60,586 nucleotides of DNA from Candidatus Microgenomatus sp. Lineage in GTDB: Bacteria > Patescibacteriota > Microgenomatia > UBA1400 > PJMF01. A model generated the notes under the pieces. It had not been told where the DNA came from. It saw nothing but the letters and a program-made list of their open reading frames with translations, and did not search any database. The translations under genes and the position numbers were made by a program. The stretch covers positions 1-60,586 of the forward strand of contig DYGL01000001.1 of NCBI GenBank assembly GCA_020724725.1, written 5' to 3'. Below, one piece after another: positions 4,127 through 38,902 of the stretch (position 1 is its first letter; the number at the start of each line of letters is the position of its first letter).

Positions 4127-4801
4127 CTAGCCATCAGCCTGACTCATTTGAGTACGTTTGTTTTGCATCAATTGAGCAGTTTGTTGCTTCTTATTGCCTG
4201 AAGGACCAACTGGGCCTTTTTTGGGACTGCTGGGAGGCGCAATGCTTTGTTCTTCTGCTTGTCTCGCCTCTTCTTCTTTACGTTGCTGTTCTTCCTGCAT
4301 TTCTTGCTGTTTTTTTTGCTGTTCTTCTTGATATTTTTGTTGGACGTAAGCTTGTTCTTCTTGAGTCAGCTTTTGCCAATTTTGGGCAATTTTTTGTTTT
4401 TTTGCTTTTTTCTCTGGAGGATCTTCTGTGTTGATTCCCAGTAAGGCATTGAGGTCAAAAAATGATTTGAAGGCATTTACAATATCTTTAGCTGGACGAA
4501 GAACCAACTCTTCTCCTAAATTGGCAATATTTCTCGGATTGGGAGGTGCCTGCTGTTGCTGACCATCTGGTGAAGCTAGTGGCGTTTGCCCTGTTCCGCT
4601 CGCCACTGCCTGTTGCTTGGCGACTCCTTGCTGACCAAGTACGGAAGATTGTTGAGCGATTTGTTTTTGGGCAGTGGCGCTATTTAAAGCAGCAGCACTT
4701 TCATGTTCATCACTAAAACCAGAACCAAAAGTTTGGCGGAAACCTCCTCCAGGTCTCATTTGTGTTTTTGCTCCAGCTTTTGGCGATCCAAAACTAGACA
4801 T
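4127..4801 (-). CDS. hypothetical low-complexity Q/E/K-rich protein
   Basis: Longest ORF in the interval; no recognisable domain. The antisense ORF 4247..4444 is a low-complexity mirror. Confidence 0.5.
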   Translation of the reverse strand: MSSFGSPKAGAKTQMRPGGGFRQTFGSGFSDEHESAAALNSATAQKQIAQQSSVLGQQGVAKQQAVASGTGQTPLASPDGQQQQAPPNPRNIANLGEELVLRPAKDIVNAFKSFFDLNALLGINTEDPPEKKAKKQKIAQNWQKLTQEEQAYVQQKYQEEQQKKQQEMQEEQQRKEEEARQAEEQSIAPPSSPKKGPVGPSGNKKQQTAQLMQNKRTQMSQADG

Positions 4802-4815
4802 TTTTTCCCTTTATT

Positions 4816-5145
4816 TTAGCTATCCAGATGCTTAAGTTGAAAAATTCTAATACTACGCTCTTCTAATTTTTTTTGCTCTGATAAAGCTTCGTTGTTAATT
4901 TTTTGACTCATTCTAGCTTGATACTGTGGAGTGTCTTTGAGCTCGTCTTTCATAATCGTCAATTGCTCAGCAATTTTGATTTGATCCTCCAGTTCTTTTT
5001 GTTTTTGCAGTAAAGCAATTTCTTCCGCACTCAAACCAGGAGCTTTTTCCTCAGGTACAACGTCAGTTGGTGCAGTAGTTCCTTGCTTTTTTTGTTCTTC
5101 AAGAAGTTTCTGGAGAGCTGCTAAAGGATCTTGATTGTCTGCCAT
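4816..5145 (-). CDS. hypothetical coiled-coil protein
   Basis: 109-aa charged, heptad-like sequence, co-directional with its neighbours. Confidence 0.45.
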   Translation of the reverse strand: MADNQDPLAALQKLLEEQKKQGTTAPTDVVPEEKAPGLSAEEIALLQKQKELEDQIKIAEQLTIMKDELKDTPQYQARMSQKINNEALSEQKKLEERSIRIFQLKHLDS

Positions 5146-5891: not shown

Positions 5892-6104
5892 ATGACAGGA
5901 GAAAAGATCACTATCCCGGCTGGAAAAGAGTTTAACGCAGGAGATCATGAAGATGGTGACGAAGGTTTCACTTCTGATAAAGATTTGGAAGCTGAAGTGG
6001 TCGGCACAGTTGAAGAAAGTGGCTCACTAAAAGTTGTTATTCCCGAAGTTGATCCAGATCGCCAATTCTTTATCCACCAACCTCCCAAAAAAGAAAAATC
6101 TTAA
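5892..6104 (+). CDS. hypothetical small acidic protein
   Basis: 70-aa ORF with no SD. A TATAAT lies about 7 nt upstream of the ATG. Its end converges on and overlaps pyrF by 4 nt. Confidence 0.3.
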   Translation: MTGEKITIPAGKEFNAGDHEDGDEGFTSDKDLEAEVVGTVEESGSLKVVIPEVDPDRQFFIHQPPKKEKS

Positions 6105-6910
6105 ATTCGATATTGGTTGATTTCATCTCGCAACTGCTTGGCAGCAACACTTGGGTCTGGAGCAAAAATAATTCCTCTAGCAGAGTTGATGATTAAGCCT
6201 TTTTTCTCCTTGTTTAAGCCTGCCTTCATTACAGAACTAAGTTCTCCACCCTGTGCACCAATCCCTGGCACCAAAAAAGTCATTTCGCCAGTCAACTCCC
6301 TCACCTGCTTCATCTCTTCGGGATAAGTGGCACCCACTACCAGCAGGCAATTGCCATTTTGATTCCACTGCTGACTAACCTTGATTGCTACTTTTTGCCA
6401 AATTTTTTCACCAGAATCTAAAACCAAATTCTGTAGCTCTCCAGATTCAGGATTGGAAGTTTTGCAAAGAATAATGCAAGCTTTATCTTGGCGCTCTAAA
6501 AATGGCTGTAGAGCTTCCCGACCAAGGTATGGGTGTAGGGTCACCGCGTCAAAACCCAACCAATCAAAAATAGCAGTCACATAGCCCTCATTGGTACTAC
6601 CAATATCTGCTCTCTTGGCGTCAAGAATTAAAGCAATTTGTGGATATTTTTCTTTCAAATAAGCGGTGGTCAAACGTAACTCATGTAAGCCTCGATCGCC
6701 TCTTGCCTCATAAAAGGCCGAGTTGGGCTTGTAGGCGCTGACATACTGATGAGTTTGATCGATGATCCACTGATTAAAAGCAAATTGAGGATGTTCCATA
6801 CTCTTAAATTGATCAGGAATTTTGGCAAAATCACTGTCTAAACCTACACAAAGCAAGGAATTAACTTGATCAACTCGTTGATTGTATTTTTCAAGAAATG
6901 TCATGGCCAT
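6101..6910 (-). CDS. pyrF: orotidine-5'-phosphate decarboxylase (long/type 2 form)
   Basis: Motifs LCVGLDSD, ILDAKRADIGST and PGIGAQGG. The start overlaps the pyrE stop. Confidence 0.85.
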   Translation of the reverse strand: MAMTFLEKYNQRVDQVNSLLCVGLDSDFAKIPDQFKSMEHPQFAFNQWIIDQTHQYVSAYKPNSAFYEARGDRGLHELRLTTAYLKEKYPQIALILDAKRADIGSTNEGYVTAIFDWLGFDAVTLHPYLGREALQPFLERQDKACIILCKTSNPESGELQNLVLDSGEKIWQKVAIKVSQQWNQNGNCLLVVGATYPEEMKQVRELTGEMTFLVPGIGAQGGELSSVMKAGLNKEKKGLIINSARGIIFAPDPSVAAKQLRDEINQYRI

Positions 6911-7544
6911 GGCGCTTTCCCCAGCCCCAAGGATCTTGGAACCAGTCTTCTAAAATTGCTTTTTGAGCTTGATCAAACAGACCCATTTCTAAAGCTTCCT
7001 CTAAAATCACTTCAAAGTTGGTTAGAGGATGTAGCTTAACTTTAGCTTTGTTGAAAGCTTCATCAGCTTCTTTAAAACCGTAGCCAACAATGATTAAACA
7101 ATCGTCAACTTGAGCACCATCCTGACGCAAAGCTTCTACTCCAGCTAGACTACTCATGCCTGTAGTAACTAAGTCTTCTAACAAAATCACTTTTTTGCCA
7201 GCAACCGACCCACCTTCAACCCGACTTTTGGTCCCGTGATCCTTGATTTTTTTACGCACAAAAACTGATGGCTGATTCATCGCATAACCCAAAGCAGCGC
7301 TATGTGGTATCCCAGCGGTTTCAATACCGGCAATTACTTCAAATGCCAATTTGTCGCGCACAATAAGTTCTTGGAAACCACTAATCACTTGTTGCCAAGC
7401 ACTTGGATAAAAAGGAAAGCGTCTGTTATCAACGTAAACTGGCGAAATAATACCTGATTTAAAAGTAATTGGCTCTGTTGGTTTAAATCCTACCGCGCCA
7501 ATTTCTAAAAGCGAGCGAGCAATTTTTTTTGCCAAATTATTCAT
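6891..7544 (-). CDS. pyrE: orotate phosphoribosyltransferase
   Basis: PRPP-binding loop KVILLEDLVTTGMS, typical length, and pyr operon context. Confidence 0.9.
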   Translation of the reverse strand: MNNLAKKIARSLLEIGAVGFKPTEPITFKSGIISPVYVDNRRFPFYPSAWQQVISGFQELIVRDKLAFEVIAGIETAGIPHSAALGYAMNQPSVFVRKKIKDHGTKSRVEGGSVAGKKVILLEDLVTTGMSSLAGVEALRQDGAQVDDCLIIVGYGFKEADEAFNKAKVKLHPLTNFEVILEEALEMGLFDQAQKAILEDWFQDPWGWGKRHGHDIS

Positions 7545-7548
7545 ATGA

Positions 7549-8628
7549 TCAGCCTTTCTTGTTTTGCAATTCCAATATTTTTAAAGCCAAATCTGGATGC
7601 CACATTGCGCCGGTAGCACTCATTACAGCGTCGGCACCAGCTTCTTTGTAGTCAAAATAATCAGTAGGCTCCGTCACTCCACCCACACCAATAATGCTAA
7701 ATTTTTGGCCAAACTCTTGACGAAATTTGGACAGACGTCTCACCATATCTAAGCCAGCCCATTTGATGGCGGCACCACAAACACCACTACGCAAGCGTCC
7801 TTCTCCTGGCAAAGCTTGTTGACCAAAAAGATTAACAATCGGCGCTGCAATTGTATTGATCACGCTCAAGCCATCTACGAGAGGACCAACTTGTCGCAAG
7901 TAGTTTCGCAAGTGCTCTTCTTCTTTAAAATAAGCCAATTTTAAAATGAGAGGCGTGTTGCCAATTTCATTTTTGATTTTTTCTGCAATCAAACGCACCC
8001 TAGCTGTGTCAAAACAAAGTAAATCAGTTGTGCCTTCGTTGGGACAGCTTAAATTGGCTTCCAAAATTTTGGCGCCAGTAGCTTTGACCAAGCGAGCAGC
8101 TAACGCATAATCTTGAATCAAATCTTTAGCACTGCCACCTTCTTTTTTGCTACCTTGAAAACTACCAATTAAAACTTGACCCTGACCAGCGTCCTGCACT
8201 GCTTCAGCCATATCTTGCTGCCAAAAATCTGGATCCATCGAAGGTACACCAAAAGAATTGGTGATCGAAAGTGGCTCACTGTAGCTCATCTCTGCCTGCA
8301 AATTATTTTCTGCCTGAGTCAAAGTCAAATCTCCTTTAACTTTCACTCCTAGAACATTGGGCCATGGATGACAGGGATAGGCTCTGGTGCGAACTGTCTT
8401 GTAAACACATAGATCAAAACCTTTTTTGAAAGCAGCTTTTACAAATTTAGCATTTAAAAGTGGTCCGGCTGGAATACCAAAAGGCAAATAGACTTTCTGA
8501 CCCAGGAAGTTAAACTTTGGCTCACCAATTCTTGCCAACTTTTGCGAGTTAGCAAAATCACCAAAGGGACCTTGTTCAAAATTTTCCTGATATGTTTTCT
8601 TAGGATCGTAAAAAGGAATTTGCAACAT
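7549..8628 (-). CDS. pyrD: dihydroorotate dehydrogenase family protein
   Basis: DHOD/DHPD TIM-barrel motifs (IPAGP, ANLSCPN, IIGVGGV, SATGAM), located between the amidohydrolase and pyrE. Confidence 0.75.
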   Translation of the reverse strand: MLQIPFYDPKKTYQENFEQGPFGDFANSQKLARIGEPKFNFLGQKVYLPFGIPAGPLLNAKFVKAAFKKGFDLCVYKTVRTRAYPCHPWPNVLGVKVKGDLTLTQAENNLQAEMSYSEPLSITNSFGVPSMDPDFWQQDMAEAVQDAGQGQVLIGSFQGSKKEGGSAKDLIQDYALAARLVKATGAKILEANLSCPNEGTTDLLCFDTARVRLIAEKIKNEIGNTPLILKLAYFKEEEHLRNYLRQVGPLVDGLSVINTIAAPIVNLFGQQALPGEGRLRSGVCGAAIKWAGLDMVRRLSKFRQEFGQKFSIIGVGGVTEPTDYFDYKEAGADAVMSATGAMWHPDLALKILELQNKKG

Positions 8629-8632
8629 ATTT

Positions 8633-9604
8633 TTAGATTAAACCCAAAACTTTTCTACCATTGGTAGTGGCAATTTTTACTAATTCTTGGAGATCATAAT
8701 AATGACAAGCTTCCAGTAAGAAGCGTAGTTCTGTCCACATATCACCATCAGTAAAAGGCTTGTAGTAGTCAGCAATATTATCTGGACCGATGGCAACCGT
8801 GACTCCAGCGGGAATCATCTCATCCACTGGCGTAACACTATTGTGAGAAGGCACCAAATCCTCACGACGTCGGTGATCAATCCAAGCGCTTGGACAAGCA
8901 ATCATCATCACTCCTGCCTTCACCATATCTTGATATAGTTTTTGACGCACGGTTTGTGGTTGTGCTGCAATAGAGATGCCATGCACTCCCACTACTTTAC
9001 CTTGCATTTGATGCTCAATAGTTTTTTGCACCAAAAGAGCGGTTTCTTGTTCTTTGGGAGTATTGAATTGATCGACATGAACATGAACCATTTTGCCGTA
9101 TTTCTTGGCAGTACTCAGCAAAACATCCAAATGCTCAGCCTCATGACCCAAATCTTTACCTGGTAAACCACCAATAATATCGACAAACTCTGCACCTTTA
9201 TCAAACCATTCTCTAGCTTGTGGCTCCAAGACTCCTTTGACTGTTTGGTTGGCAAAAAGCAATTTGATTTGTGACTTGTAACGTTCTCTGACTCGCTCTG
9301 CTGCAAGCATTGATTTGTCTTGAATGAGCGGATCAACGTCAATAAAAGTACATAGAGCAGTTACACCCTGAGCGATTTGTTGCTCAATTCCAAAAGCCAT
9401 TCGATCATAAATGTCGTCTACCGTCTGACTTTGCTTAAGATCGTCAATTAGATCCCATTTTTCTTGCAAAGAAATATCAGCTAAGCGCAAATCTTCGGCT
9501 TTGATTAAATAGGCTTTATCGAGATGATTGTGAGCACTCACCCATCCACCATACGCTTTAATTTCTTTCAATAAGTGTGCTTTGAGATCCCAATTGTTTT
9601 GCAT
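8633..9604 (-). CDS. amidohydrolase-superfamily protein, cytosine-deaminase (CodA/AtzC)-like
   Basis: Metal ligand motifs AHNHLD, VHVHVDQ and GVHG, plus GPDNIADYYKPFT (compare CodA ...HDDVFDPWYPLGT). The canonical dihydroorotase signature D-x-H-x-H-L-R is absent. It occupies the pyrC position of the operon. Confidence 0.6.
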   Translation of the reverse strand: MQNNWDLKAHLLKEIKAYGGWVSAHNHLDKAYLIKAEDLRLADISLQEKWDLIDDLKQSQTVDDIYDRMAFGIEQQIAQGVTALCTFIDVDPLIQDKSMLAAERVRERYKSQIKLLFANQTVKGVLEPQAREWFDKGAEFVDIIGGLPGKDLGHEAEHLDVLLSTAKKYGKMVHVHVDQFNTPKEQETALLVQKTIEHQMQGKVVGVHGISIAAQPQTVRQKLYQDMVKAGVMMIACPSAWIDHRRREDLVPSHNSVTPVDEMIPAGVTVAIGPDNIADYYKPFTDGDMWTELRFLLEACHYYDLQELVKIATTNGRKVLGLI

Positions 9605-9609
9605 TTATT

Positions 9610-11244
9610 TTAAGTACTACGACGCTTTCTCACGACCAATCTTTTTTGTAGTTCCTTGACCAAACCAACAGCTGTTTCCACATCTCTGACCAAAGTTACA
9701 CCGTTCTTAACTGCCCATTTCTTGATGACTTGCTCATCAGATTTGGCTTCTTTAGTCTGATTGTCATATGGCAAGTTAATAACCAAGTCAAAAACATTTT
9801 GGCGCAGGATGTCTTCCAAAGATGGATAAAGATCTTTGTACATTTTGTGCACCATCACTGAGTGGATATTATGTTTTTTCAAAAATAAATGAGTGTTTTC
9901 AGTTGCATAGAACTGAAAGCCTAATTCAGCTAATTGTTTGATGCTTGGAAGCAAAGCTTTTTTATTCTTCTCTTCACCAATTGTCAGCAAAGCAAAGCGT
10001 TCATTGTCCTGAGCCAAACGCATTTGCAAGGTATAAATTTCGATGAAGCCTGCAGAAGCATTTTGGTTAAAGGTGTCATTCTTCATAAAGGTGGCCAATT
10101 TCTCATCAAAGATAGTATTAGCAGTTTCTACAGCCACCACTTCTGCCTGACCCTTAAATAATTTAACTGTTACTAAGCCACTCACCTTTTGATTGACTCT
10201 GTCAAGGTAGGCATTTAAATCATCCATCAAGGGTTCGTACCAAAGTGCTCCATAACACAAGTAAGCCCATTTAGTATCAACTAGCGACTTAAACTCGTTT
10301 TCTTCGCGAGTGGAAACATATTTTTCTAAATTAAAATGAGCGTTAATAATTATCTCGGCGGCTGGTGCTTCATAAAGACCTCTGACTTTAAGTCCCACTA
10401 AGCGATCTTCAATGTGATGGGTTACACCAACTCCGTGCTTAGCGCCGACTTTGTTTAAATGCATGATCAGATCTGCCAAACGCATCGGTTTACCATCAAC
10501 TTCCACTGGCAAACCTTTGACAAAGCGTAGTTTGACGTAAACTGGCTTGTCTGGAGTTTTTTCAATCACCCGACAAACTTGTAAAATTTTGTCCAGAGGT
10601 GGAATAAGGGCTGGATTCTCGATTTCACCACTTTCTCCAGTCACACCCCACATGTTGTCATCATAGGAATAAGGAGAGGCTTTGGTTTGCTTGACTGGAA
10701 TATTATGTTTTTTGGCGTAAGCCAACTCTTCATCGCGACCCATACTCCATTCGCGCACTGGAGCGATAATTTTCATTTCTGGTGCCAAAGTCAAAATCGA
10801 GCCCTCAATTCTAACTTGATCGTTGCCTTTACCCGTACAACCATGAGCGATAGTATCGGCCCCATATTCTCTGGCTACTTCGACGGCAATTTTGGATAAA
10901 AGAGGTCTGCCAAGCGGAGTGCTCATGTGATATTTACCTTGATAGCTGGCGTTGGCCTTAATGCCTTTGGCTAAATAGTGATAAGCAAATTCATTTTTGG
11001 CATCAATCACAATTGCCTCTTTTGCACCGAGCTTAAGAGCTTTCTTTCTAATTTCTTCCAAATCATCTGCTTGCTGACCAATATCAATAGTGAGGGCAAT
11101 CACTTCTGCCTCATAGGTGTCTTGAATCCACTTCAACATGACTGAGGTGTCTAAACCACCAGAATATAGTAGTACTACCTTGTGTACACTGCCCTTACGA
11201 CCCTCATAAGAAGAAACCTTAGTGTAAGTTGAAGCTTGTTGCAT
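9610..11244 (-). CDS. argG: argininosuccinate synthase fused to a C-terminal MGS-like domain
   Basis: ArgG motifs are YSGGLDTS, GCTGKGNDQVR, YSYDDNMWG and EDRLVGLKVRG. An extra ~130 aa (about 9613-10002) matches the MGS-like/CarB allosteric-domain pattern (LGFQFYATENTHLFLKKHNI...FDLVINLP...TLVRDVETA). Start set to the ATG at 11244, downstream of the recR terminator. Confidence 0.8.
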   Translation of the reverse strand: MQQASTYTKVSSYEGRKGSVHKVVLLYSGGLDTSVMLKWIQDTYEAEVIALTIDIGQQADDLEEIRKKALKLGAKEAIVIDAKNEFAYHYLAKGIKANASYQGKYHMSTPLGRPLLSKIAVEVAREYGADTIAHGCTGKGNDQVRIEGSILTLAPEMKIIAPVREWSMGRDEELAYAKKHNIPVKQTKASPYSYDDNMWGVTGESGEIENPALIPPLDKILQVCRVIEKTPDKPVYVKLRFVKGLPVEVDGKPMRLADLIMHLNKVGAKHGVGVTHHIEDRLVGLKVRGLYEAPAAEIIINAHFNLEKYVSTREENEFKSLVDTKWAYLCYGALWYEPLMDDLNAYLDRVNQKVSGLVTVKLFKGQAEVVAVETANTIFDEKLATFMKNDTFNQNASAGFIEIYTLQMRLAQDNERFALLTIGEEKNKKALLPSIKQLAELGFQFYATENTHLFLKKHNIHSVMVHKMYKDLYPSLEDILRQNVFDLVINLPYDNQTKEAKSDEQVIKKWAVKNGVTLVRDVETAVGLVKELQKRLVVRKRRST

Positions 11245-11402: not shown

Positions 11403-12014
11403 TTAAAGCTGTCTTCTGCCTTCTAATGCTCTAGCCAAAGTCACCCCATCAGCATACTCAATATCTGCTCCGATGGGTAAACCATGACCAATGCGCGTAA
11501 TACTTAATTGATCCTTGTTTGGTAGATTAGAATTAGCAATCATTTCTTTGATATAGAGAGCGGTAGCTTCACCTTCCATAGTTGGATTAGTGGCCAAAAT
11601 TAACTCTGTCACACCGTCTAGTCTCTTAAGTAAATCTCTTAAATACAACTGATCTGGACCAATGTTGCTAAGTGGAGCAATGCAACCATGCAAAACATGA
11701 TATAAGCCATGATATTTGTCTGATTTCTCGATAGCCAAAAGATCCAAAGGTTGCTCAACTACACAGATTGATTCAAGGTGACGGTTTGGGTCACTACAAA
11801 TAGAACAAGGGTTATGCTCGGCGATATTATGACAACTTTCACACATCACCGTCTCTCTCTTGAGAGCTAGTAGCTTATCAGCAAAATCTTCCAATTGAGA
11901 GCTAGGGTTATGAAGCAAATAAAAAACCAAGCGTTGCGCCAAACGTGGCCCAATGCCTGGCAAACGCTCGAATTTTTCCACTAGTTGGCGAACTGCTTTG
12001 GGCAATTTTTGCAT
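11403..12014 (-). CDS. recR: recombination protein RecR
   Basis: HhH (LPGIGPRLAQRL), a C4 zinc finger (CESCHN...CSICSD) and a Toprim region. Confidence 0.9.
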   Translation of the reverse strand: MQKLPKAVRQLVEKFERLPGIGPRLAQRLVFYLLHNPSSQLEDFADKLLALKRETVMCESCHNIAEHNPCSICSDPNRHLESICVVEQPLDLLAIEKSDKYHGLYHVLHGCIAPLSNIGPDQLYLRDLLKRLDGVTELILATNPTMEGEATALYIKEMIANSNLPNKDQLSITRIGHGLPIGADIEYADGVTLARALEGRRQL

Positions 12015-12016
12015 TT

Positions 12017-12724
12017 TTACTCTTCTCTATAATCAACCGACACATCCTCCAATTGATTTTCCCAATCTTTGGTTTGTTTTTTGGCTAAAAACTTTTCTGT
12101 AGCCGACCAAATTTGTCTCTCAACTTCTTCAGCGTTGACACTAGCATCAATAATTTGCCAACGTGAATGAGCTGAATACTTTTTCATATCATTTTTGGCA
12201 GTTTGCAAATAAGCCTGACGGACTTTCTCATGGAAATCTTTGGCCTCATAATCAATGCGGTTGGCACCTTCTTCACTCATGCGACGACCAAGACCAATTT
12301 CAACTGGAGCATCAAGTAAAAATGTAATATCTGGATAAGTTTTTTTTGTAGAAATATCATTAAGCTGGTCGATAATCTCCACCCCAAAACCTCTGACCAT
12401 GCCCTGATAAACCACACTACTGTCTCTAGAACGATCCATTACTACAATTTTGCCAAGTTCCAAAGAAGGTAGGACAATCTCTCGATAGATTTGGGCGCGA
12501 GCAGCTTGAAAAAGCAGAACTTCAGTTGTGTAAGCCATGCCAACATTTTTATTGGATAAAACTACTTCGCGAATTTGCTCACTAATTACTGTGCCACCAG
12601 GCTCACGCAAAACTACCACGTCTTTACCAGCCTTAATCAAGCGTTCTTTTAGCCTAACTACCTGTGTGGTCTTACCCACTCCCTCGCCACCTTCCAAAGT
12701 GATCAACAAACCTTTTGTTTTCAT
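12017..12724 (-). CDS. tmk: thymidylate kinase
   Basis: P-loop LEGGEGVGKTTQ, a DRS motif (MDRSRDSS) and a lid region. There is a ~25-aa C-terminal extension. Confidence 0.9.
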   Translation of the reverse strand: MKTKGLLITLEGGEGVGKTTQVVRLKERLIKAGKDVVVLREPGGTVISEQIREVVLSNKNVGMAYTTEVLLFQAARAQIYREIVLPSLELGKIVVMDRSRDSSVVYQGMVRGFGVEIIDQLNDISTKKTYPDITFLLDAPVEIGLGRRMSEEGANRIDYEAKDFHEKVRQAYLQTAKNDMKKYSAHSRWQIIDASVNAEEVERQIWSATEKFLAKKQTKDWENQLEDVSVDYREE

Positions 12725-12751: not shown

Positions 12752-13660
12752 CTAAACCCAAAAAACTGTCCCTCTTCCCAGAGTAGCATTTGCTGCATTG
12801 TTTTGCAAAACTGCCTGAGCTCTAGAAGATCCTACTTCCACTCCACCAGCAATTGCTAATTTGAGTTGCAAAAGTGAATCGTTTGACTTAAGTCCTCCAG
12901 TTATATTCCAAGCTACTTCATTGCCTACTTGTTGTCTAAATAAAGCCAATTTAGCTTTAAGTTTTTGTAAAGAAACACGACTATTTCGCCAATCTAAAAT
13001 CTCTTCTTTGAAAAAGTCAGTAATCCAAGGCTGTAGTGCAATTTCATAACCAACTTGGTTTTTCAAAAAACCGCGAATGATCGATAAAGCTTCAAAAGTG
13101 TGATTGTTTTTAGCCAAAACATCTTCCTCAGTCATATTGGGCTCAAGCTGAAAAAAACGAGGTTCACGATTGGCAAAAAGCTTGGCTTCCACCAAACGAG
13201 CCAAGAATTCGCCTTGAAAATCTGGACCGAGTTGCTTAACAAAGGAAAATAAGGTAGTAAATAACGATTCAAAATTTTTTAAAATGTTACCTTCAGTCAA
13301 ATTCAGAGTTTGTTCCTTAAGTTGGCTGAAATCGCCGTGAAACTGACCATTTACTTTGGCAAAAATCGTCTCTTCTACACTAAAACGTAGATTTAACTTG
13401 CGTTTTAGAATTTGCAGCATAACAATAAAATCGGCAAACTCTAATAATAATTCTTTACTAGGAGGTAATTTTTTCTTTTTCTCTTCTCTACTTCGTTCAA
13501 GTTTTGCTTGCTCAACTTCCCATTCTTTGACTTCAGTTAAAGTGTAATTAATCAAGGCAGTCGGAGAAGCCAATTGATTGGCCAAAATTAAAACTGGATG
13601 AGTTTCATCAGTGTAACCAACTTCAAATAATCTTGCTAATCCTTCTTGCTGACTTGCCAT
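12752..13660 (-). CDS. hypothetical all-alpha protein
   Basis: Start set to the ATG at 13660, 1 nt after the dut stop and preceded by AGGAAA. No confident domain; a weak MazG-like helix (EFADFIVMLQILKRKL). Confidence 0.5.
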   Translation of the reverse strand: MASQQEGLARLFEVGYTDETHPVLILANQLASPTALINYTLTEVKEWEVEQAKLERSREEKKKKLPPSKELLLEFADFIVMLQILKRKLNLRFSVEETIFAKVNGQFHGDFSQLKEQTLNLTEGNILKNFESLFTTLFSFVKQLGPDFQGEFLARLVEAKLFANREPRFFQLEPNMTEEDVLAKNNHTFEALSIIRGFLKNQVGYEIALQPWITDFFKEEILDWRNSRVSLQKLKAKLALFRQQVGNEVAWNITGGLKSNDSLLQLKLAIAGGVEVGSSRAQAVLQNNAANATLGRGTVFWV

Positions 13661-13661
13661 T

Positions 13662-14096
13662 TTATTTCCTGCCGGTACTCCCAAAGCCACCGCGGTTGTC
13701 AGCTGGCAAAACTGATAATTGCTCTAGTTTTATTTCCGGTCTTTTAAGAATCAGCATTTGCACTAAACGCTCGCCTTTTTCAATTTTAACGACCTGATCG
13801 CTGAAATTGTAAAGGGCGGCCAAATACTCATCACCATCACCTCGATAATCGTAATCCCCAATTCCAATACCATTAGCCATCAACAAGCCTTTTTTATGTA
13901 AAGAACTACGAGCAGATAATAAAACAAAATGATCTTCTGGAATCTGCAAAGCAACATTAAGTGGCACATAGGCTACTTGCCTAGGTTCGACCTGCATGGC
14001 CAAGCGACTATACAAATCCAGAGCTGCTGCTCCAGAGCTTTTATATTCTGGTAAAGGCAAACTTGAATCAAACAACTTGATTTGAACTTTAAGCAT
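13662..14096 (-). CDS. dut: dUTP diphosphatase (trimeric dUTPase)
   Basis: Motifs GAAALDLYS, GIGIGDYDYRG and a C-terminal GGFGSTG. Start moved to MLKVQIK. Confidence 0.85.
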   Translation of the reverse strand: MLKVQIKLFDSSLPLPEYKSSGAAALDLYSRLAMQVEPRQVAYVPLNVALQIPEDHFVLLSARSSLHKKGLLMANGIGIGDYDYRGDGDEYLAALYNFSDQVVKIEKGERLVQMLILKRPEIKLEQLSVLPADNRGGFGSTGRK

Positions 14097-15867: not shown

Positions 15868-16684
15868 GAGAATTTCCTCCTTTTTGCCAAGAAGCACTAT
15901 TTAATAATGGAGCATAAGCATCATCTGCTAATGCAATTTTGTTCGAAGCTAATTCTGTAGCACTTGGTTCATGGTCAACAAACTGTACTTTTTCGAGTTC
16001 GCTCGCAAGTGCCAAAGGTGTACGCTCGCCCACCTCCCCCATAGCAAATGTTGTTGCAACTCCTAAAGCTTCAGCGGCATTAACTTGAACCATGTGAATT
16101 TGGCGACCAAAAAGATCCTTTTGACCAATATGATTATTAAGACCTTTAAAACCACAGTAAGCTAAAGTTGTGCCCACCACTCCCCAACGAAGAGGAAAAG
16201 AGCGAGAGTCTGTGCTGATGACGCCAAAATTTTTGAGACCATATTTCTGACGACAATGATGCCAAACTTGGTTGAGTGTCGCCTGCAAATCTGTTGGCCA
16301 AAGCACGAAACATTCCTCACCGTCCAAATTGGCATTAGACTCATCAATGCCGGCATTAACCGCCAAAGTCGAATCTTTGATCGTCAACATTAAATCATAT
16401 TTAGAAGAGTGCGGATCAGTATAGAGTTCAGCTTCTTTTTGAACTAAAGCGTGCTTTTCAGCTCGTGCTTGTTCTTTGGAAAAACCTTGTATTTCACTTT
16501 GAGTTTTTTTGACTAGTCTACCCTGACAATAACTAATAATTTTGGAGCTAATGGCTAGGACTGAGTTTTCAGGCAAATGAGCCTGTAGTTTGGTATCCGC
16601 CGCAATAGACTCATCAATCACCTGTAAAAGATCATCATTGGCTTTTACTAAACGAGTTTGGAGAGCTTGAACTTGCATTGTCAC
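15860..16684 (-). CDS. CofE/FbiB-N family (F420-0:gamma-glutamyl ligase-like) protein
   Basis: By-eye match to CofE motifs: LAISSKIISYCQGR, NAGIDESNAN, VISTDSRSFPLRWG, and MGEVGERTPLALA. Confidence 0.7.
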   Translation of the reverse strand: MTMQVQALQTRLVKANDDLLQVIDESIAADTKLQAHLPENSVLAISSKIISYCQGRLVKKTQSEIQGFSKEQARAEKHALVQKEAELYTDPHSSKYDLMLTIKDSTLAVNAGIDESNANLDGEECFVLWPTDLQATLNQVWHHCRQKYGLKNFGVISTDSRSFPLRWGVVGTTLAYCGFKGLNNHIGQKDLFGRQIHMVQVNAAEALGVATTFAMGEVGERTPLALASELEKVQFVDHEPSATELASNKIALADDAYAPLLNSASWQKGGNSHD

Positions 16685-16741
16685 AATTATACATCAGTAA
16701 CACTTGCCTTCCCTGCCTACAATTGCTACATTAACCTTAAC

Positions 16742-17614
16742 ATGTCTCATCAACTTTCCCCCTACCAAAACTTACTCAAAGAAGTCTTAGAGACTGGTGC
16801 TCGTGGCCAGAGTCAGCAAGAAATCGACACGATCAGTAAAATTGCTCCAGCTCCACTGCGTTTTAAGTTGAGCGAAGGTTTTCCTATTATTACTGAGCGC
16901 AAAATTAGTGAAAAAATGTGGAAGGGTGCGATCGGAGAAATCATCGGCTTTATCAATGGTGCGCGCACTCAAGCTGAGCTAGAAACTTATGGCTGTCACT
17001 GGTGGAAAGCTTGGGTCACTGAAGCCAAATGTCACAAAAGAGGCTTGGAAACTGGCGACCTTGGCCCCGGCTCTTACGGCGCAGCTTTTCATGATTTTCC
17101 AACTAGTGAAGGTGGCACTTTCAATCAATTTAAAGAAATTATCGAACAAATTAAAGAGTTTCCTCATCTTAAAACTCACTTTATCAGTCCATGGATCCCT
17201 CAGTACACTATTCGTGGCACCGGCAAACAACAGAAAGTCGTCGTTTGTCCTTGTCATGGTTGGATTCACATTCGTGTCATTGATGGTAAATTAACCCTAC
17301 ACATGTTTCAGCGCAGTAGCGACGTGCCCATTGGTTTACCAGCTAATTTGGCTCAATACGCTGCCTTGACGATGATGATTGCGGAAGTAACTGGTTATGA
17401 GGCCTATGAATATGTGCACAGTTTCTCTGACGCTCATATTTTTGTCGACCAAGTTGATCACGTCAAAGAATTGTTGAAACGCGAAACTCGTCCACTTCCT
17501 CGCATGATTCTAAAAAATAAGAAAAAAAATCTTTTTGACTACCGCGTCGAAGATTTTGAGTTAGTTGATTACAACCCTCACCCTGGCATGTGGGACATTC
17601 CCGTAGCAGTTTAA
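16742..17614 (+). CDS. thyA: thymidylate synthase ThyA-family protein (divergent)
   Basis: Motifs YQNLLKEVLETG, GDLGPGSYG, CPCHGW (catalytic Cys), FQRSSDVPIGLPANLAQY, PLPRM, DYNPHPG and PVAV. Start set at MSHQL (ATG 16742). Confidence 0.8.
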   Translation: MSHQLSPYQNLLKEVLETGARGQSQQEIDTISKIAPAPLRFKLSEGFPIITERKISEKMWKGAIGEIIGFINGARTQAELETYGCHWWKAWVTEAKCHKRGLETGDLGPGSYGAAFHDFPTSEGGTFNQFKEIIEQIKEFPHLKTHFISPWIPQYTIRGTGKQQKVVVCPCHGWIHIRVIDGKLTLHMFQRSSDVPIGLPANLAQYAALTMMIAEVTGYEAYEYVHSFSDAHIFVDQVDHVKELLKRETRPLPRMILKNKKKNLFDYRVEDFELVDYNPHPGMWDIPVAV

Positions 17615-17616
17615 GT

Positions 17617-18087
17617 ATGGCAAAAAATAAAAATAACTTTATCAATCTAAACAATGCTCGCGAAGATGAGCAAATCGAGGTCATGCAAAAAATCGCTGAC
17701 CAAGCTCACTGTCCATTTTGTAGCGAGAACTTGCGACTTTATCATCAACAACCCATTCTGAAAGAAGGCCAATATTGGCTCCTTACCAAAAACCAATGGC
17801 CCTATGCTCACACCAAACATCATTTGCTTTTGATCTACAAAACTCACGCTAGCAAACTAACAGACTTAGAAGATCAGGCCGGAGCTGAACTTTTTGCTAT
17901 GATTAAAGAATTGGAACAAAAATTGAACTTTGAAGGTGGCGGACTCGCTCTCAGATTTGGAGACACTGACTTCTCTGCTGGCACAGTCAATCACTTGCAT
18001 GTGCAACTCATTATCCCAGACGCCATGGCTAAAGATTTTGAACCAGTCAGAGTGAAATTGGGCTTGCAGTGGGAAAAGAGAAAATAA
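17617..18087 (+). CDS. HIT-superfamily nucleotide hydrolase/transferase (HxHxQ variant)
   Basis: C-terminal NHLHVQLI and N-terminal CPFC. The start is 3 nt after the thyA stop. Confidence 0.75.
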   Translation: MAKNKNNFINLNNAREDEQIEVMQKIADQAHCPFCSENLRLYHQQPILKEGQYWLLTKNQWPYAHTKHHLLLIYKTHASKLTDLEDQAGAELFAMIKELEQKLNFEGGGLALRFGDTDFSAGTVNHLHVQLIIPDAMAKDFEPVRVKLGLQWEKRK

Positions 18088-18092: not shown

Positions 18093-19040
18093 TTAAAGCA
18101 CGTAGCAATCTTTAACTTTAGATCTTAATTGCTCAAGTTTCTCAATTTCTTCAAACTCATCTTTACTGAATTTAACCAACACCACTTCCACTCCAAAACT
18201 CTTGAGGATTTCCAAGCCATCTAGAACCGCATAGCCTTTGGCGTAATAAACTCTTTTGATGCCTGCGACAGCAATTTGCTTGGCACAAACTGGGCAAGGA
18301 AAAGTGGTCACAAACATCTCCGCTCCAGCCAAAGCAAGACCTCTTTTGGCAGCTAGAGCAATTAGATTAGCCTCTGCATGAATTGAGCTACTAAAATCAG
18401 CGCCTACTCCAGATGAAAATGAGATGCGTGGGTCACCATTTTTGTACTGTTGATCGGGGCTTGGCAAGTGTTCATTAGAGCCAAGGGAAATAATTTGTCC
18501 ATCTTTAACAATAACACTGCCTACATGGCGCCACCAATCACTACTTAGACCAGCTGCTTGAAAAGCCTGAGTCATGGTTTGACGAGCGAAATCATCTTTA
18601 GTAATGATCACATCTGGCGAAACTTCTTTCTGCTCGCTCATCAGGTTTTTATCCCAACGTAAAAAAATTGGCTCAAAGATTTTTTCTTCCACATTGGCAA
18701 AAAAATGTTCAGCCAAAAAATGACCAATGTCATCATTGGTAAAAATCAGTTGAAATTTTTCGGGTGCATTGATAGTTGATTTTAATGAGTAAATAATTTT
18801 ATCTATATCATTAATTTTAATTGATTTAACAATCTCAAATATATCAAATGATTTGATGGCCTGCTGGGCTTTGGAGACACTCAAAACCCGAATGTCTTTT
18901 TTGAGATATTCTAACTCTTCAAAAGCCAACAACTCTTCTCTGTTGATTAAATAAAGAGTAGCGCCAGCATATTTGGCAAAAAACTCTTCATAGCCACGAT
19001 GTAAAACTGGCACATAAGCAAAGAGAATTTGTTTGGTCAT
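18093..19040 (-). CDS. dCMP/CMP deaminase with uncharacterised N-terminal domain
   Basis: The C-terminal ~165 aa carries HAEANLI and PCPVCAKQI zinc motifs. The N-terminal ~150 aa (AYVPVLHRGYEEFF...) is unassigned. Confidence 0.8.
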   Translation of the reverse strand: MTKQILFAYVPVLHRGYEEFFAKYAGATLYLINREELLAFEELEYLKKDIRVLSVSKAQQAIKSFDIFEIVKSIKINDIDKIIYSLKSTINAPEKFQLIFTNDDIGHFLAEHFFANVEEKIFEPIFLRWDKNLMSEQKEVSPDVIITKDDFARQTMTQAFQAAGLSSDWWRHVGSVIVKDGQIISLGSNEHLPSPDQQYKNGDPRISFSSGVGADFSSSIHAEANLIALAAKRGLALAGAEMFVTTFPCPVCAKQIAVAGIKRVYYAKGYAVLDGLEILKSFGVEVVLVKFSKDEFEEIEKLEQLRSKVKDCYVL

Positions 19041-28656: not shown

Positions 28657-29769
28657 CTAGCTATTAAGCAAGTTAGCTGCTTGGCGCCATAGGTTGCGAC
28701 TAATCAAGCCTTCGGCTTGTTTAACCTTGGCTAGGGTTGCTTCATCAGCTCCCTCTTTCATTTTACTCAAACGCTCGCCCATCATTTCCGATTTAAGCTC
28801 CAGAGCTTTTTCGTACAAAACTTCGTCCAAGTCTGGAATAATTTTTTCCAAATAAACAATCAAGTCTTCTTTTTTCTGGTTCTCATCGCTAGCTGAATCA
28901 AGAATTTCTCTAGCCTTGACATATTCTTCACTGGTCAGCAACAATTCTAAATCATGAACGACAAAATCATCCCAAATCATACTCTCCAGTTCATCTAAAA
29001 ATTGATTTTTCTCTTCATCACTAATTTTAGCTAAACCAAGCATCTCAAAGATATTTTGGGCACGAAGTTCTTCTGATTCATCACTATTTTCTAAGCTCTT
29101 TTCCTCAGCAGGCTCTGGAGCCAAAATTGCTTCGGTGGCGGCTTCTTGATCTTCAACCAAATTCTGACTTGGAGCGCGATTTTTTCTAAAATCATCTGCC
29201 GAGTCCGAAACCAGAGTTGACTCTTCTAAAGATGGAGTTGTTGGAGCTGGATCAGGAGGCACAACAGAATCACCTTGAGGATTTTCTGCCTTGGCAGCTT
29301 TGATCTTGGCTGATTCCTCATCAATCTTTTTTTCCAAATCATCTAAGAAAGCATCAAAATCAAATTTTTCCTCTTCTTCAGAGGGAGAAGTTTCTACTTT
29401 GTCTGGCACATCCATTGTTGGTGCTAAAGGTTGAACTACTGGAGGCTCAGTCGCTGGTGGCTCAACTACCAAAGGCTCAACCATTGGCGATTCAACTGGT
29501 TCACTTTTTACTTCACTAGGAGCGACAGCTTGACTTTCCAAATTTTTAGAAAGCTCATCTAATTCAGCTAAAAGACGATCGATCTCAGCGGCATTATTCT
29601 TGGTGTTATCCTCAACCTTTTGCATGGTAGCCTGCACTGCTTGATTAATCTGCTCATTTTGATCAGGGACGGTGTCAGAAACTACCACGGGAGGTGTTGA
29701 ATTATCAGTTGCTTGAATTGGTGCAGCAGGCTGACTTTGATTGACAAAGTCATCTTGTATCTGGATCAT
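28657..29769 (-). CDS. hypothetical acidic Pro/Glu-rich protein
   Basis: 370 aa with a low-complexity PxxP/E-rich centre and a helical C-terminal domain. Confidence 0.5.
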   Translation of the reverse strand: MIQIQDDFVNQSQPAAPIQATDNSTPPVVVSDTVPDQNEQINQAVQATMQKVEDNTKNNAAEIDRLLAELDELSKNLESQAVAPSEVKSEPVESPMVEPLVVEPPATEPPVVQPLAPTMDVPDKVETSPSEEEEKFDFDAFLDDLEKKIDEESAKIKAAKAENPQGDSVVPPDPAPTTPSLEESTLVSDSADDFRKNRAPSQNLVEDQEAATEAILAPEPAEEKSLENSDESEELRAQNIFEMLGLAKISDEEKNQFLDELESMIWDDFVVHDLELLLTSEEYVKAREILDSASDENQKKEDLIVYLEKIIPDLDEVLYEKALELKSEMMGERLSKMKEGADEATLAKVKQAEGLISRNLWRQAANLLNS

Positions 29770-37037: not shown

Positions 37038-37071
37038 AGAAATCACAATAACGTGTGATTTCTCATTTCTG

Positions 37072-37142
37072 CAGGGCGGGAAGGAATCGAACCCTCATCA
37101 AAGGTTTTGGAGACCTCTATTCTACCGTTGAACTACCGCCCT
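37072..37142 (-). tRNA. tRNA-Trp (anticodon CCA)
   Basis: Hand-folded cloverleaf: acceptor AGGGCGG/CCGCCCT, anticodon arm GAGGT-CTCCAAA-ACCTT, T arm GAGGG-TTCGATT-CCTTC. 71 nt, no encoded CCA. Confidence 0.85.
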
Positions 37143-37216
37143 TTGTTAATTTAATTTCGAAGGCAATTATAATCGACTTATCGTAAATAGCCAAGCAACC
37201 TGCTACACTAAAAAGC

Positions 37217-38695
37217 ATGCAAAATCATGACCTCTCTAAGGACATTAGAAGCATTTACGAACAAGACAAAAAACTGCTGGAACAAAGCGCCGTTCCCATT
37301 ATCACTGTTTCCGCTACTTTCCTTGAAGATCTCAAGGGGTTGCACAAAAAGAAAGAAACCGACAGCAAAACCGATATTGTTTTGTCTCGAGCTCACTACT
37401 CGATGGCCATGGGCATTGCTATAGAAGCTTGGGGCGATAAAATCGATCCTAAAAAAGCCTGGCTCGTTGATAGCACCAACTATGTCAGTCTCAAAGACAC
37501 CAAAAGTGTGGAAATTACTCACGCCATTGGCAAGGTGATTGCTCGCTGGCCAATTTTGAAAACTTTCAAAGATCTGGTTGATAAATTTGGCCGCTCGAAA
37601 ATGCCAATTCTAGACAATGTCACTCCACCTACTATTTATTTAGGTTCAGGCATTGAAAAAAGCATTCTCTCTTTTCACATCGTCACTGGCAATATCCTCG
37701 CCAGTGAGGGTAAAAAAGTTGTCCAAATGATCACAGATCCTCACGTGAGAAGCGATTATTTGGCCAACGCTCATTTGCCTAATATGAAATTTTTGGTTTT
37801 TGATGAAGCCACCAAAAAAGAGTTTTTTCAAGTCGCTAAAGAAATTGGCCAAAAAATTCCCCAAGCTCAATTGGCTGACAAAGTAATTGTTACTGGCCCA
37901 CCCATTGACCCCCGCATCGTTGCTTGCAACCAGACCAAAAAAGCTTGGACCAAAGATCGACCACTGCGCATTTGTCTAACCACTGGCGGTCTTGGTACCA
38001 ACAAAACAGAGATTAAAGCCATTCTAGAACAACTCCTGCCCATCCTAAAAGAGCAAGCTCTTGGCAAAAAAACTGCCTTGCCAGAAACTCAAGTCCTGTT
38101 TTACGCCGGCACACACCTCGACCACAAAGAGATGGCGGCGGAAATTGCTCAAGCCAATCAACTCGCCTACCAAATCATTAGTCCCAAAGATCCGGCTAGT
38201 TTTAGAATTGGTGGCAAAATTAAAAGCAAAGATGATCTAATCAAGGAAGATTCAAGGTTTAGCATCATTTATCATCCACAAATAGTCGACGCCAATGAGC
38301 TCTTCGTCAACAACGCTTTCCCTTGGACTGATCTTTTTATCAGCAAACCTTCGGGTGATATGGCCTATGACGCCGTGGTTTCTGGCGCTGCTCTTCTCAC
38401 TCTTAAAGAATGGGGTGAATGGGAACATAATGTGCGCCAAACCTTTGAAAAGAATGGTACAGCCATGATTGCTCAGGTTGACAATATTGTCGAACAGTTA
38501 ATAGAAATTAGCGCTGACCAAGAACAAAACTTGAAAATCAAAAAACTAAATAGCAGTAATTTGCCAAGCCCAGCTCTAGAAGAACAAGCAAATAGTTCTT
38601 GGCTGAATCAAGCCATGAAAAATAGCAAAAAACTAGACAAAACCTTCTACCAAGGCGCCAAAAATATCTTGCGTGCGCTGAAAGCCAATAATTAA
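37217..38695 (+). CDS. GT28-like (MGDG synthase/UgtP/MurG-type) glycosyltransferase, divergent
   Basis: Architecture matches by eye: VTGPPIDPR, LTTGGLG, and ISKPSGDMAYDAV...GEWEHN...NGTA (compare KPGG.T..EA...PGQE..N...G.A). Confidence 0.45.
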   Translation: MQNHDLSKDIRSIYEQDKKLLEQSAVPIITVSATFLEDLKGLHKKKETDSKTDIVLSRAHYSMAMGIAIEAWGDKIDPKKAWLVDSTNYVSLKDTKSVEITHAIGKVIARWPILKTFKDLVDKFGRSKMPILDNVTPPTIYLGSGIEKSILSFHIVTGNILASEGKKVVQMITDPHVRSDYLANAHLPNMKFLVFDEATKKEFFQVAKEIGQKIPQAQLADKVIVTGPPIDPRIVACNQTKKAWTKDRPLRICLTTGGLGTNKTEIKAILEQLLPILKEQALGKKTALPETQVLFYAGTHLDHKEMAAEIAQANQLAYQIISPKDPASFRIGGKIKSKDDLIKEDSRFSIIYHPQIVDANELFVNNAFPWTDLFISKPSGDMAYDAVVSGAALLTLKEWGEWEHNVRQTFEKNGTAMIAQVDNIVEQLIEISADQEQNLKIKKLNSSNLPSPALEEQANSSWLNQAMKNSKKLDKTFYQGAKNILRALKANN

Positions 38696-38698
38696 AAA

Positions 38699-38902
38699 CT
38701 ATTTAAGCTTCTTCATCAATTTGTGAGGAGTGTGCTTGCGACAGACACTGCAATACTTACTCAAAGGAAAACTACCTTCGCCTGAAGTTTGCTTCTTGAG
38801 AGTTTCGTTGTTTTTGTTGTATTCGCTGACGTAACCAAAAGCGTTGCAAACACTACATTGTAAACCGATTGCTTGTCTTGGACCTTTTTTCTTACTTGCC
38901 AT
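38699..38902 (-). CDS. rpmG: 50S ribosomal protein L33 (zinc-ribbon form)
   Basis: Small basic protein with CSVC...CSVC. Adjacent to the tRNA-Thr/Tyr cluster, as in many bacteria. Confidence 0.8.
   Translation of the reverse strand: MASKKKGPRQAIGLQCSVCNAFGYVSEYNKNNETLKKQTSGEGSFPLSKYCSVCRKHTPHKLMKKLK

Follow-up and report, generated by a model that had tools for sequence, protein, structure and literature searches.

A putative carbamoyl-phosphate-independent entry into pyrimidine synthesis, encoded by an ArgG-MGS fusion and an AtzC-like amidohydrolase in Patescibacteria

The 60,586-nt stretch of DNA from Candidatus Microgenomatus sp. analyzed here (contig DYGL01000001.1; "the window" is this whole stretch) contains five tightly packed minus-strand genes located past the recR terminator. 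These encode, in order, an argininosuccinate synthase fused to an MGS-like domain (ArgG-MGS), an amidohydrolase (Amh), PyrD, PyrE, and PyrF. On balance, the evidence leans toward ArgG-MGS and Amh being a carbamoyl-phosphate-independent front end of de novo uridine monophosphate (UMP) synthesis. The two genes are paired in dozens of distinct contigs, and they hold the operon positions that the genes for carbamoyl-phosphate synthetase (CPSase; CarA and CarB), aspartate transcarbamoylase (ATCase; PyrB), and dihydroorotase (DHOase; PyrC) hold in related loci. A first-pass annotation of the same DNA had described the gene order, the fusion, and the tight packing after the recR terminator, and this description was confirmed throughout. 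Those of its predictions that computation could address came out in its favor, and its interpretation is partly supported. The features of the operon are as follows.

9610-11244, minus strand: ArgG-MGS gene, 544 aa, counted from the ATG at 11244
9997..11244, minus strand: ArgG core of the fusion, residues 1-416, argininosuccinate synthase
9610..9996, minus strand: MGS-like domain of the fusion, residues ~417-544, homologue of the CarB allosteric domain
8633-9604, minus strand: Amh gene, 323 aa, mononuclear amidohydrolase (NF005365/PRK06886), CodA/AtzC branch
7549-8628, minus strand: PyrD gene, 359 aa, divergent class-1-like dihydroorotate dehydrogenase
6891-7544, minus strand: PyrE gene, orotate phosphoribosyltransferase (PRTase), TIGR00336
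6101-6910, minus strand: PyrF gene, orotidine monophosphate decarboxylase (subfamily 2), TIGR02127
11290..11319, minus strand: intrinsic-terminator-like hairpin, 11-bp stem (5 GC pairs), 8-nt loop, T-run

The genes are separated by 5, 4, and 4 nt, in operon order, and the end of pyrE overlaps the start of pyrF by 20 nt. The hairpin (11319-11290) lies between recR (11403-12014) and the operon, closing the tmk-recR unit and setting the 5′ boundary of the operon; an alternative ArgG-MGS start (TTG at 11298) falls within its stem. Upstream of the operon, an Rfam search matched no known leader or riboswitch, and a promoter scan gave scores no better than those of shuffled sequence.

Conservation of the pair and displacement of the canonical genes

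Related loci (L numbers) were collected by genome scans in which Amh, the ArgG C-terminus with the MGS junction, an MGS-Amh fusion (see below), and PyrF relatives were the queries, and up to 10 kb on each side was taken as the context of a locus. The Amh scan gave 41 loci, in most of which ArgG-MGS adjoins Amh and PyrD, PyrE, and PyrF often come next. The reciprocal scan with the ArgG C-terminus and MGS, which is independent of Amh, gave 21 true fusions, with Amh directly after 20 of them, and 16 unfused ArgGs, with ArgH beside 13 (two of these also with ornithine transcarbamoylase, OTC) and Amh beside two. After de-duplication, Amh is found within 2.5 kb in 39 of the 42 distinct ArgG-MGS contigs and ArgH in one, whereas in contigs with unfused ArgG the corresponding counts are 3/15 for Amh and 12/15 for ArgH (Fisher p 2e-7, the contig set being partly ascertained through Amh). 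This recurrence in dozens of distinct contigs places the arrangement far from chance; the neighborhood of argG-MGS, the amidohydrolase gene, and pyrDEF, whose conservation the first-pass annotation had proposed to check, is strongly conserved across relatives. The nearest public contigs are labeled Candidatus Pacebacteria, and Amh of the closest (L001) is 89% identical in amino-acid sequence to that of the window.

The 21st fusion (L066; CAYIUX010000006.1, 5041-11576) differs in its hydrolase. Here, ArgG-MGS overlaps the start of a gene for another amidohydrolase, a 443-aa protein of the TRZ/ATZ / 8-oxoguanine-deaminase type in which the HxxE motif is present, followed by a radical-SAM/SPASM-like protein, a PyrE-like PRTase, Upp, and PyrG. 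No PyrD was found in the flank of this locus, where the radical-SAM enzyme might take over the role of the dehydrogenase. That a non-orthologous deaminase-type hydrolase fills this slot suggests that the ArgG-MGS reaction is followed by hydrolysis at an amidine or guanidine carbon.

Neighbors were counted over 62 distinct contigs with unfused Amh (about 0.88 Mb): PyrD is found in 20, PyrE in 19, PyrF in 20, uridine kinase (Udk) in 8, PyrK in 7, and Prs in 6, with uridine kinase directly upstream of Amh in 8 loci. In 11 of the 62, and not in the window, a protein of ~270-300 aa with the DDAH/arginine-deiminase fold is encoded beside Amh. This gene is placed between those of ArgG-MGS and Amh, and in L046 it immediately precedes Amh and overlaps its start. 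The best matches of the protein are dimethylargininase and arginine dihydrolase models, all under the cutoff of every named family, and its simplest role would be the production of citrulline from arginine. Environmental Saccharibacteria have been reported to be without a classical arginine deiminase system (PMC12815258).

In the loci listed below, apart from L020 and L023, canonical genes take the place of the pair. The scan with PyrF relatives found clusters in which PyrD, PyrE, and PyrF are orthologous to those of the window (53-63% identity) and are accompanied by canonical genes, the identities of which were confirmed.

L178: CarB-CarA divergent from PyrC-PyrD-PyrE-PyrF, with PyrD/E/F 53-59% identical to those of the window
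L173, L176, L177: PyrD-PyrE-PyrF-PyrC-PyrB
L175: PyrB-PyrI-PyrC-OTC-PyrE-PyrF
L179: CarB-PyrB-PyrC ... PyrF
L183 (Saccharibacteria): Prs-PyrB-CarB-CarA, PyrC, and PyrD, with PyrF-PyrE
L020, L023 (Saccharibacteria): Prs with ArgG-MGS-DDAH-like-Amh and PyrD, and PyrF-PyrE

In the window, Amh stands immediately before PyrD-PyrE-PyrF, as PyrC does in L178. The frame of L183 is shared by L020 and L023, so that Amh holds the position of PyrC, and ArgG-MGS that of CarAB and PyrB. PyrB, PyrC, CarB, and OTC were found in none of the 62 contigs, and Amh in none of 14 pyr loci with canonical genes (one-sided Fisher p 0.015, for a contig set partly ascertained through Amh). The closest ATCase relatives of a Microgenomates PyrB belong to named Gottesman- and Beckwithbacteria, then to phyla outside the candidate phyla radiation (CPR), and not to Amh-bearing lineages, which is a weak hint in the same direction.

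The window itself was searched by tblastn with E. coli and CPR-type versions of the carbamoyl-phosphate, pyrimidine, and arginine enzymes. No CarA, CarB, PyrB, PyrI, PyrC, OTC, ArgH, ArgB, ArgC, or ArgE was found in the 60.6 kb, and only the MGS domain was matched. A Pfam search of 20 further open reading frames (ORFs) in the window gave housekeeping genes, thyA, and a dCMP-deaminase-like gene, with no arginine gene among them.

Proteins 55-91% identical to those of the window, in the same synteny (tmk, recR, and thyA are neighbors in L036), are also carried by many metagenome-assembled genomes (MAGs) labeled as uncultured Gammaproteobacteria/Pseudomonadales (L004, L008, L010, L014, L018, L021, L036, L050-L052, L056, L058-L060, and others). 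These labels are probably wrong, and the apparent spread of the cassette into Gammaproteobacteria is therefore not to be trusted.

Properties of the encoded proteins

ArgG-MGS matches the Pfam families Arginosuc_synth (residues 22-183), Arginosuc_syn_C (192-410), and MGS (431-519). The NCBIfam argG model NF001770 (504.2 bits, cutoff 334) and TIGR00032 (450.9 bits, cutoff 268) cover residues 19-415, and the core matches ArgG of T. thermophilus (1J1Z, E 2e-99). The P-loop YSGGLDTS and the GCTGKGNDQVR motif are both present. In an alignment of 38 fused ArgG-MGS and 17 unfused ArgG sequences, 11 ligand positions (Y84, T88, R92, T116, N120, D121, R124, S173, E184, E258, and Y270 in 1J1Z numbering) are invariant; from ArgG structures and UniProt P00966, we take these to be positions that bind citrulline and aspartate. 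Since all of them are kept, ArgG-MGS should be a genuine argininosuccinate synthase with argininosuccinate as its expected product. A change of substrate was considered and rejected, because fused and unfused proteins differ at three positions only, none of them in the pocket.

The MGS domain (PF02142, 49.4 bits against a cutoff of 24.1, E 5e-13) aligns to the CarB C-terminus (NF003671 positions 937-1050) and to the CPSase allosteric domains in PDB entries 2yvq, 5dot, and 6uel, which bears out the first-pass assignment of a CarB-type domain. The equivalents of E. coli CarB K954, T974, T977, and K993 are K, T, T/S, and K, each in 37-38 of 38 ArgG-MGS sequences, and are also conserved in MGS-Amh. 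In E. coli CPSase, these residues hold the phosphate of inosine monophosphate (IMP) or UMP. Their retention points to nucleotide control of ArgG-MGS: a nucleoside monophosphate of the UMP or IMP class probably binds to the MGS domain and slows the committed step.

Amh passes the cutoff of a single NCBIfam model, NF005365 (PRK06886; 481.4 bits against 340), an equivalog labeled "hypothetical protein" in the June 2026 release, and matches Amidohydro_1/3 in Pfam. Cytosine deaminase models give 76-101 bits (best 100.8) against cutoffs of 403-483, and no dihydroorotase NCBIfam model matched at E<=0.01; on TIGR00857, by comparison, the true DHOases of related loci reach 244-396 bits. Among solved sequences, cytosine/5-methylcytosine (5mC) deaminases and AtzC come nearest (E 1e-19 to 1e-13), with ~22% identity to AtzC (E 1e-14) and ~21-26% to CodA/AtzC overall. 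The AlphaFold2 model of Amh (pLDDT 90.7) is matched in Foldseek by CodA and 5mC deaminases (TMq 0.83-0.86) and by AtzC (0.75-0.82), and no DHOase fold is found among the top 50. Profiles, sequence matches, and fold matches thus agree with the earlier placement of the protein in the CodA/AtzC branch and not among the dihydroorotases.

Residues were mapped by homology, using 57 family members aligned with E. coli CodA and Pseudomonas AtzC. The metal-binding and catalytic set is intact: H25, H27, H176, H208, and D275 correspond to CodA H61, H63, H214, H246, and D313. The proton-shuttle Glu217 of CodA (HxxE) is replaced by Gln179 in 57/57 sequences, and the specificity residue Asp314 of CodA by Asn276 in 55/57, which matches AtzC Asn304. 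In addition, K/R30 corresponds to AtzC Lys65, H208 aligns to the essential AtzC His249, and Gln179 falls in the AtzC His219/Asp220 region, in which His219 is not kept; the roles of the AtzC pocket and catalytic residues have been described (PMC4577212). Amh is missing the N-terminal beta-sandwich domain of CodA and AtzC (323 aa against 403-427), and the carboxylated-Lys binuclear signature of DHOases is not present. Family membership and conserved residues place Amh in the CodA/AtzC branch, as a catalytically competent hydrolase that is neither a cytosine deaminase nor a DHOase.

The Amh family is large yet compact: grouping at 90% identity gives at least 1,728 clusters (E<=1e-10), and grouping at 50% identity gives 73 (E<=1e-30). 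Its source annotations are generic (for example, "cytosine/creatinine deaminase"). On NF005365, the relatives of Amh in Melainabacteria, Saccharibacteria, Hyphomicrobium, and Zavarzinella reach 377-473 bits. In several distant family members, the MGS domain is found at the N-terminus of Amh rather than on ArgG, the partner that carries it in CPR. This MGS-Amh fusion, which belongs to the same NCBIfam equivalog, was found in at least 331 genome loci in free-living bacteria by genome scan. In large genomes it mostly stands alone, without conserved neighbors that span lineages, and only sporadic ArgG, carAB, OTC, PyrB/PyrC, and PyrE were seen beside it: ArgG is near in five loci (divergently adjacent in four, on the same strand in L111), OTC in L158 and L164, and PyrE in L133. 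One rationalization of the mobile MGS domain would be that the sensor rides on the enzyme that commits argininosuccinate or citrulline to pyrimidines, namely on ArgG in systems without ArgH and on Amh where it would act at an argininosuccinate branch point.

Carriers of MGS-Amh include Proteobacteria, Planctomycetota, Acidobacteriota, Myxococcota, and others (L088-L166), among them the cultured Hyphomicrobium zavarzinii (L125), Rhodomicrobium udaipurense (L119), and Zavarzinella formosa (L101). In L091 (8643-16131), MGS-Amh and a 383-aa ORF behind it lie on the opposite strand within a pyrR-pyrB ... pyrC region; the PyrB ORF of this locus has just 203 aa (the N-terminal two-thirds) and may be disrupted or mis-assembled.

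The downstream enzymes of the window operon are assigned by profile. PyrE (TIGR00336, 125 bits against 106.8) and PyrF (TIGR02127, 237.5 against 110.6) pass their cutoffs. PyrD passes that of Pfam DHO_dh (PF01180, 64.7 bits against 27), whereas the class-specific NCBIfam equivalogs are all below cutoff (64 against 269); its PDB matches are weak (E about 1e-7), to dihydroorotate dehydrogenases of class 1B and class 2, and its LSCPN motif aligns with the class-1 catalytic Cys region. Amh clusters and canonical PyrC clusters alike contain orthologues of this PyrD (53-83% identity). The window type of PyrD accompanies either front end and was seen in pyr clusters of Acidobacteria and CPR as well as in Anaerolineae-associated ones, and a 633-aa PyrD-PRTase fusion is encoded ~0.8 kb upstream of ArgG-MGS-Amh on the complete Roizmanbacteria chromosome CP066689.1 (L005:3638-5539). 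A 657-aa Amh-PyrD fusion (P0178; L086:4011-5984, L085:9420-11393) is followed by a 221-aa ORF, for which no Pfam hit is on record, and then by PyrF.

The wider surroundings of the operon contain further genes of pyrimidine-nucleotide metabolism, tmk (12017-12724) and thyA (16658-17614). A 165-aa ORF (17590-18087) that overlaps thyA could possibly be folA, and a 315-aa protein with a dCMP/cytidine-deaminase domain and an N-terminal extension of ~150 aa is encoded at 18093-19040. At 4127-5145 (minus strand), two adjoining low-complexity ORFs encode Gln/Glu/Lys-rich proteins of 224 and 109 aa, which are kept in the closest relatives L001 and L002 (clusters c17 and c18). Four ORFs of 312-664 aa (12752-13690, 28657-29769, 37217-38695, and 40498-42492) gave no Pfam match at E<=1e-4, and two of these lie at the flanks of a four-gene tRNA cluster (Trp, Thr, Tyr, Thr; 37071-39240).

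Proposed route and rival explanations

In the proposed route, ArgG-MGS, which has an intact active site, would join citrulline and aspartate at the expense of ATP to form argininosuccinate, and its CPSase-type MGS domain would sense a nucleoside monophosphate and limit this committed step. Judging from gene context and its AtzC-like active site, Amh would then use argininosuccinate and supply the substrate of PyrD. By analogy with AtzC-type chemistry, its metal-bound hydroxide would attack the guanidino carbon and cut the bond to N(delta), which would release ornithine and leave the citrulline ureido carbon as C2 of the pyrimidine ring. Two forms of this step can be envisaged. A six-membered cyclic anhydride of argininosuccinate may be hydrolyzed to dihydroorotate directly, which would be the closest analogue of the AtzC reaction; alternatively, N-carbamoyl-aspartate may be formed, in which case ring closure to dihydroorotate would still be required. 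The standard steps of PyrD, PyrE, and PyrF would then lead to UMP. Citrulline would come from imported arginine or citrulline and, in many relatives, from arginine via the DDAH/arginine-deiminase-fold enzyme encoded beside Amh. The net conversion would be arginine or citrulline, aspartate, and ATP to dihydroorotate, ornithine, AMP, and PPi.

A wider form of the proposal is advanced with more reserve, as a conjecture that could well fail. It holds that the route of a UMP-sensing synthase and an AtzC-like NF005365 enzyme is the sole one in large parts of Patescibacteria (Microgenomates and Saccharibacteria), and that MGS-Amh is a regulated argininosuccinate-to-pyrimidine shunt, or serves the salvage of cyclized argininosuccinate, in many free-living bacteria.

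Several points weigh against the proposed route. To turn argininosuccinate into dihydroorotate, a C-N bond must be hydrolyzed and the ring must be closed, and no single mononuclear amidohydrolase is known to carry out both reactions. ArgH adjoins the cassette in L038-40 and L078, and the Amh genes of Melainabacteria are solitary and have no informative context. MGS-Amh directly precedes carA-carB in L035 and L090, which would also fit a DHOase-like role, and coexists with canonical type-I PyrC, PyrB, and PyrR in L091, a Terriglobia MAG. The first-pass statement that carAB, pyrB, and pyrC are missing therefore holds for the window, and for PyrB, PyrC, and CarB also in the 62 unfused-Amh contigs, but not as a property of the whole family, whose members in free-living bacteria may work as a shunt, as a DHOase isozyme, or in the salvage or repair of cyclized argininosuccinate. 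Finally, in the Amh-PyrD fusion P0178 the Amh domain is dead, its metal ligands having been lost (H25Y, H176Q, H208F, D275G). This protein had been considered as proof of consecutive Amh and PyrD catalysis and was downgraded for this reason: it shows an association of Amh with PyrD, not catalysis, and its Amh part looks like a pseudoenzyme domain retained on PyrD.

The main rival, rather unlikely though with several loci in its favor, is that Amh is a new CodA-fold DHOase acting on N-carbamoyl-aspartate. ATCase would then be encoded elsewhere, carbamoyl phosphate would come from CarAB or from citrulline via OTC, and ArgG-MGS would serve arginine synthesis and be co-transcribed through arginine/pyrimidine co-regulation. 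The exact position of Amh in the PyrC slot of orthologous operons (compare L178), the carA-carB loci L035 and L090, the location within the pyrR-pyrB...pyrC region of L091, and the adjoining ArgH in L038-40 and L078 would all fit such a role. However, Amh has neither sequence or fold similarity to DHOases nor their carboxylated-Lys signature, a canonical DHOase is already encoded beside MGS-Amh in L091, and it would be unusual for a DHOase to carry a nucleotide-sensing domain. Among CPR loci, moreover, PyrB always occurs with canonical PyrC and Amh with ArgG-MGS, and no mixed cluster of PyrB and Amh was seen, which argues against Amh as merely an interchangeable DHOase. The near-obligate adjacency of ArgG-MGS and Amh, the mobile MGS domain, the DDAH-like gene, and the hydrolase of L066 are also left unexplained. 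The pair may instead make the ring precursor by other chemistry, to which only a small probability is given: ArgG-MGS could, for example, adenylate a different ureido compound, such as urea, and so form guanidinosuccinate, which Amh would cyclize and deiminate, or the DDAH-like enzyme, where present, could free ornithine from argininosuccinate, with Amh only closing the ring. The resemblance of Amh to (iso)cytosine-type deaminases and AtzC, which hydrolyze exocyclic C-N bonds on six-membered rings, is compatible with this chemistry. In Saccharibacteria and Levyibacteria loci, the DDAH-like gene stands between those of ArgG-MGS and Amh, an order that fits three steps, and the DDAH-like protein falls below all named-family cutoffs, which leaves room for various substrates. 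Against it, ArgG-MGS keeps, without variation, every residue that grips citrulline at its amino-acid end, which argues against a urea-like substrate, and the DDAH-like gene, missing from the window and from most cassettes (present in 11/62 contigs), cannot encode an obligatory step.

Still less credence is given to plain co-location, which the first-pass annotation had named as its mundane alternative: Amh would be a pyrimidine-salvage deaminase (of the cytosine, isocytosine, or creatinine type), and ArgG an ordinary arginine gene product sharing the pyrDEF operon. The "cytosine/creatinine deaminase" naming of the family, the uridine kinase immediately upstream of Amh in 8 loci, and the presence of tmk, thyA, and the dCMP-deaminase-like gene in the window would be expected from it. 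Yet the catalytic Glu of HxxE is an invariant Gln (57/57), CodA Asp314 is replaced by Asn, and the scores are far under the cytosine-deaminase cutoffs. Even distant lineages keep Amh adjacent to ArgG-MGS, whereas the partner of unfused ArgG is ArgH, and in most cassettes Amh is in the PyrC slot and not in a salvage context. Taken together, the conserved pairing, the displacement of the canonical module, the DDAH-like neighbor, the transfer of MGS between ArgG and Amh, and the variant hydrolase of L066 disfavor an accidental co-location, and the argininosuccinate route by ArgG-MGS and Amh is preferred.

Comparison with known systems

The six-step orotate pathway is among the most conserved in biology. 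Carbamoyl phosphate has been stated to be the pyrimidine precursor in all domains of life (PMC13260591), and a full-text literature search found no description of an argininosuccinate-to-pyrimidine route or of an ArgG-MGS fusion. A 2026 preprint on Saccharimonadia speaks of "near-complete" pyrimidine modules and of argG/argH enrichment. If the proposed route is correct, it would comprise a new reaction without an EC number and a new pathway topology, as a second entry into a pathway regarded as universal, and a large family still called "hypothetical" would gain a function (1,728 or more clusters at 90% identity, and no fewer than 331 loci of the fused form). Reconstructions of CPR/Patescibacteria, which are now scored as pyrimidine auxotrophs or "near-complete", with ArgG as an apparent orphan, would also change. 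Nucleotide supply would be tied to host-derived arginine or citrulline, with ornithine returned, which bears on episymbiosis, and the module, at about 2.6 kb, would be a compact one for engineering pyrimidine synthesis.

The ArgG-MGS/Amh module resembles canonical CarAB/PyrB/PyrC in its operon position, upstream of orthologous PyrD/E/F and beside Prs, in its presumed output, dihydroorotate, and in a first enzyme that bears, as CarB does, an MGS-type allosteric domain with the nucleotide-phosphate residues kept. It differs in having two proteins rather than four, with no homologue of CPSase, ATCase, or DHOase, and in the source of the carbamoyl unit, which would derive from citrulline via an adenylated intermediate and argininosuccinate, with ornithine as co-product. 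Compared with ArgG (EC 6.3.4.5), the synthase core is full-length and above cutoff, has identical ATP, citrulline, and aspartate ligands, and presumably catalyzes the same reaction. The window protein is, however, fused to MGS and partnered by an amidohydrolase and pyr genes instead of ArgH, and its product is proposed to be hydrolyzed, not cleaved to arginine and fumarate.

With AtzC and CodA (subtype III amidohydrolases), Amh shares the fold (TMq 0.75-0.86), the His/His/His/Asp metal site, and the second-shell His (AtzC H249), and with AtzC also the Lys/Arg (K65) and Asn (N304) pocket residues. AtzC frees an alkylamine from a ring carbon between nitrogens, which is the reaction type proposed for the release of ornithine by Amh. 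By contrast, Amh has only ~21-26% identity to these enzymes, has no N-terminal beta-sandwich, carries Gln for CodA Glu217/AtzC His219, and forms its own NCBIfam equivalog, in a context that is biosynthetic, not catabolic.

The closest precedent for the carbamoyl source is found in Thermococcales that are without CPSase, which take the carbamoyl unit of pyrimidines from arginine via the arginine synthetase ArcE and OTC (PMC13260591). As in these archaea and in the arginine deiminase system, the carbamoyl unit of the proposed route would come from arginine or citrulline, with citrulline supplied by a guanidino-modifying enzyme. In those systems, however, OTC regenerates carbamoyl phosphate, and ATCase and DHOase remain necessary, whereas OTC is missing from all 62 cassette contigs and the transfer in Patescibacteria would pass through argininosuccinate.

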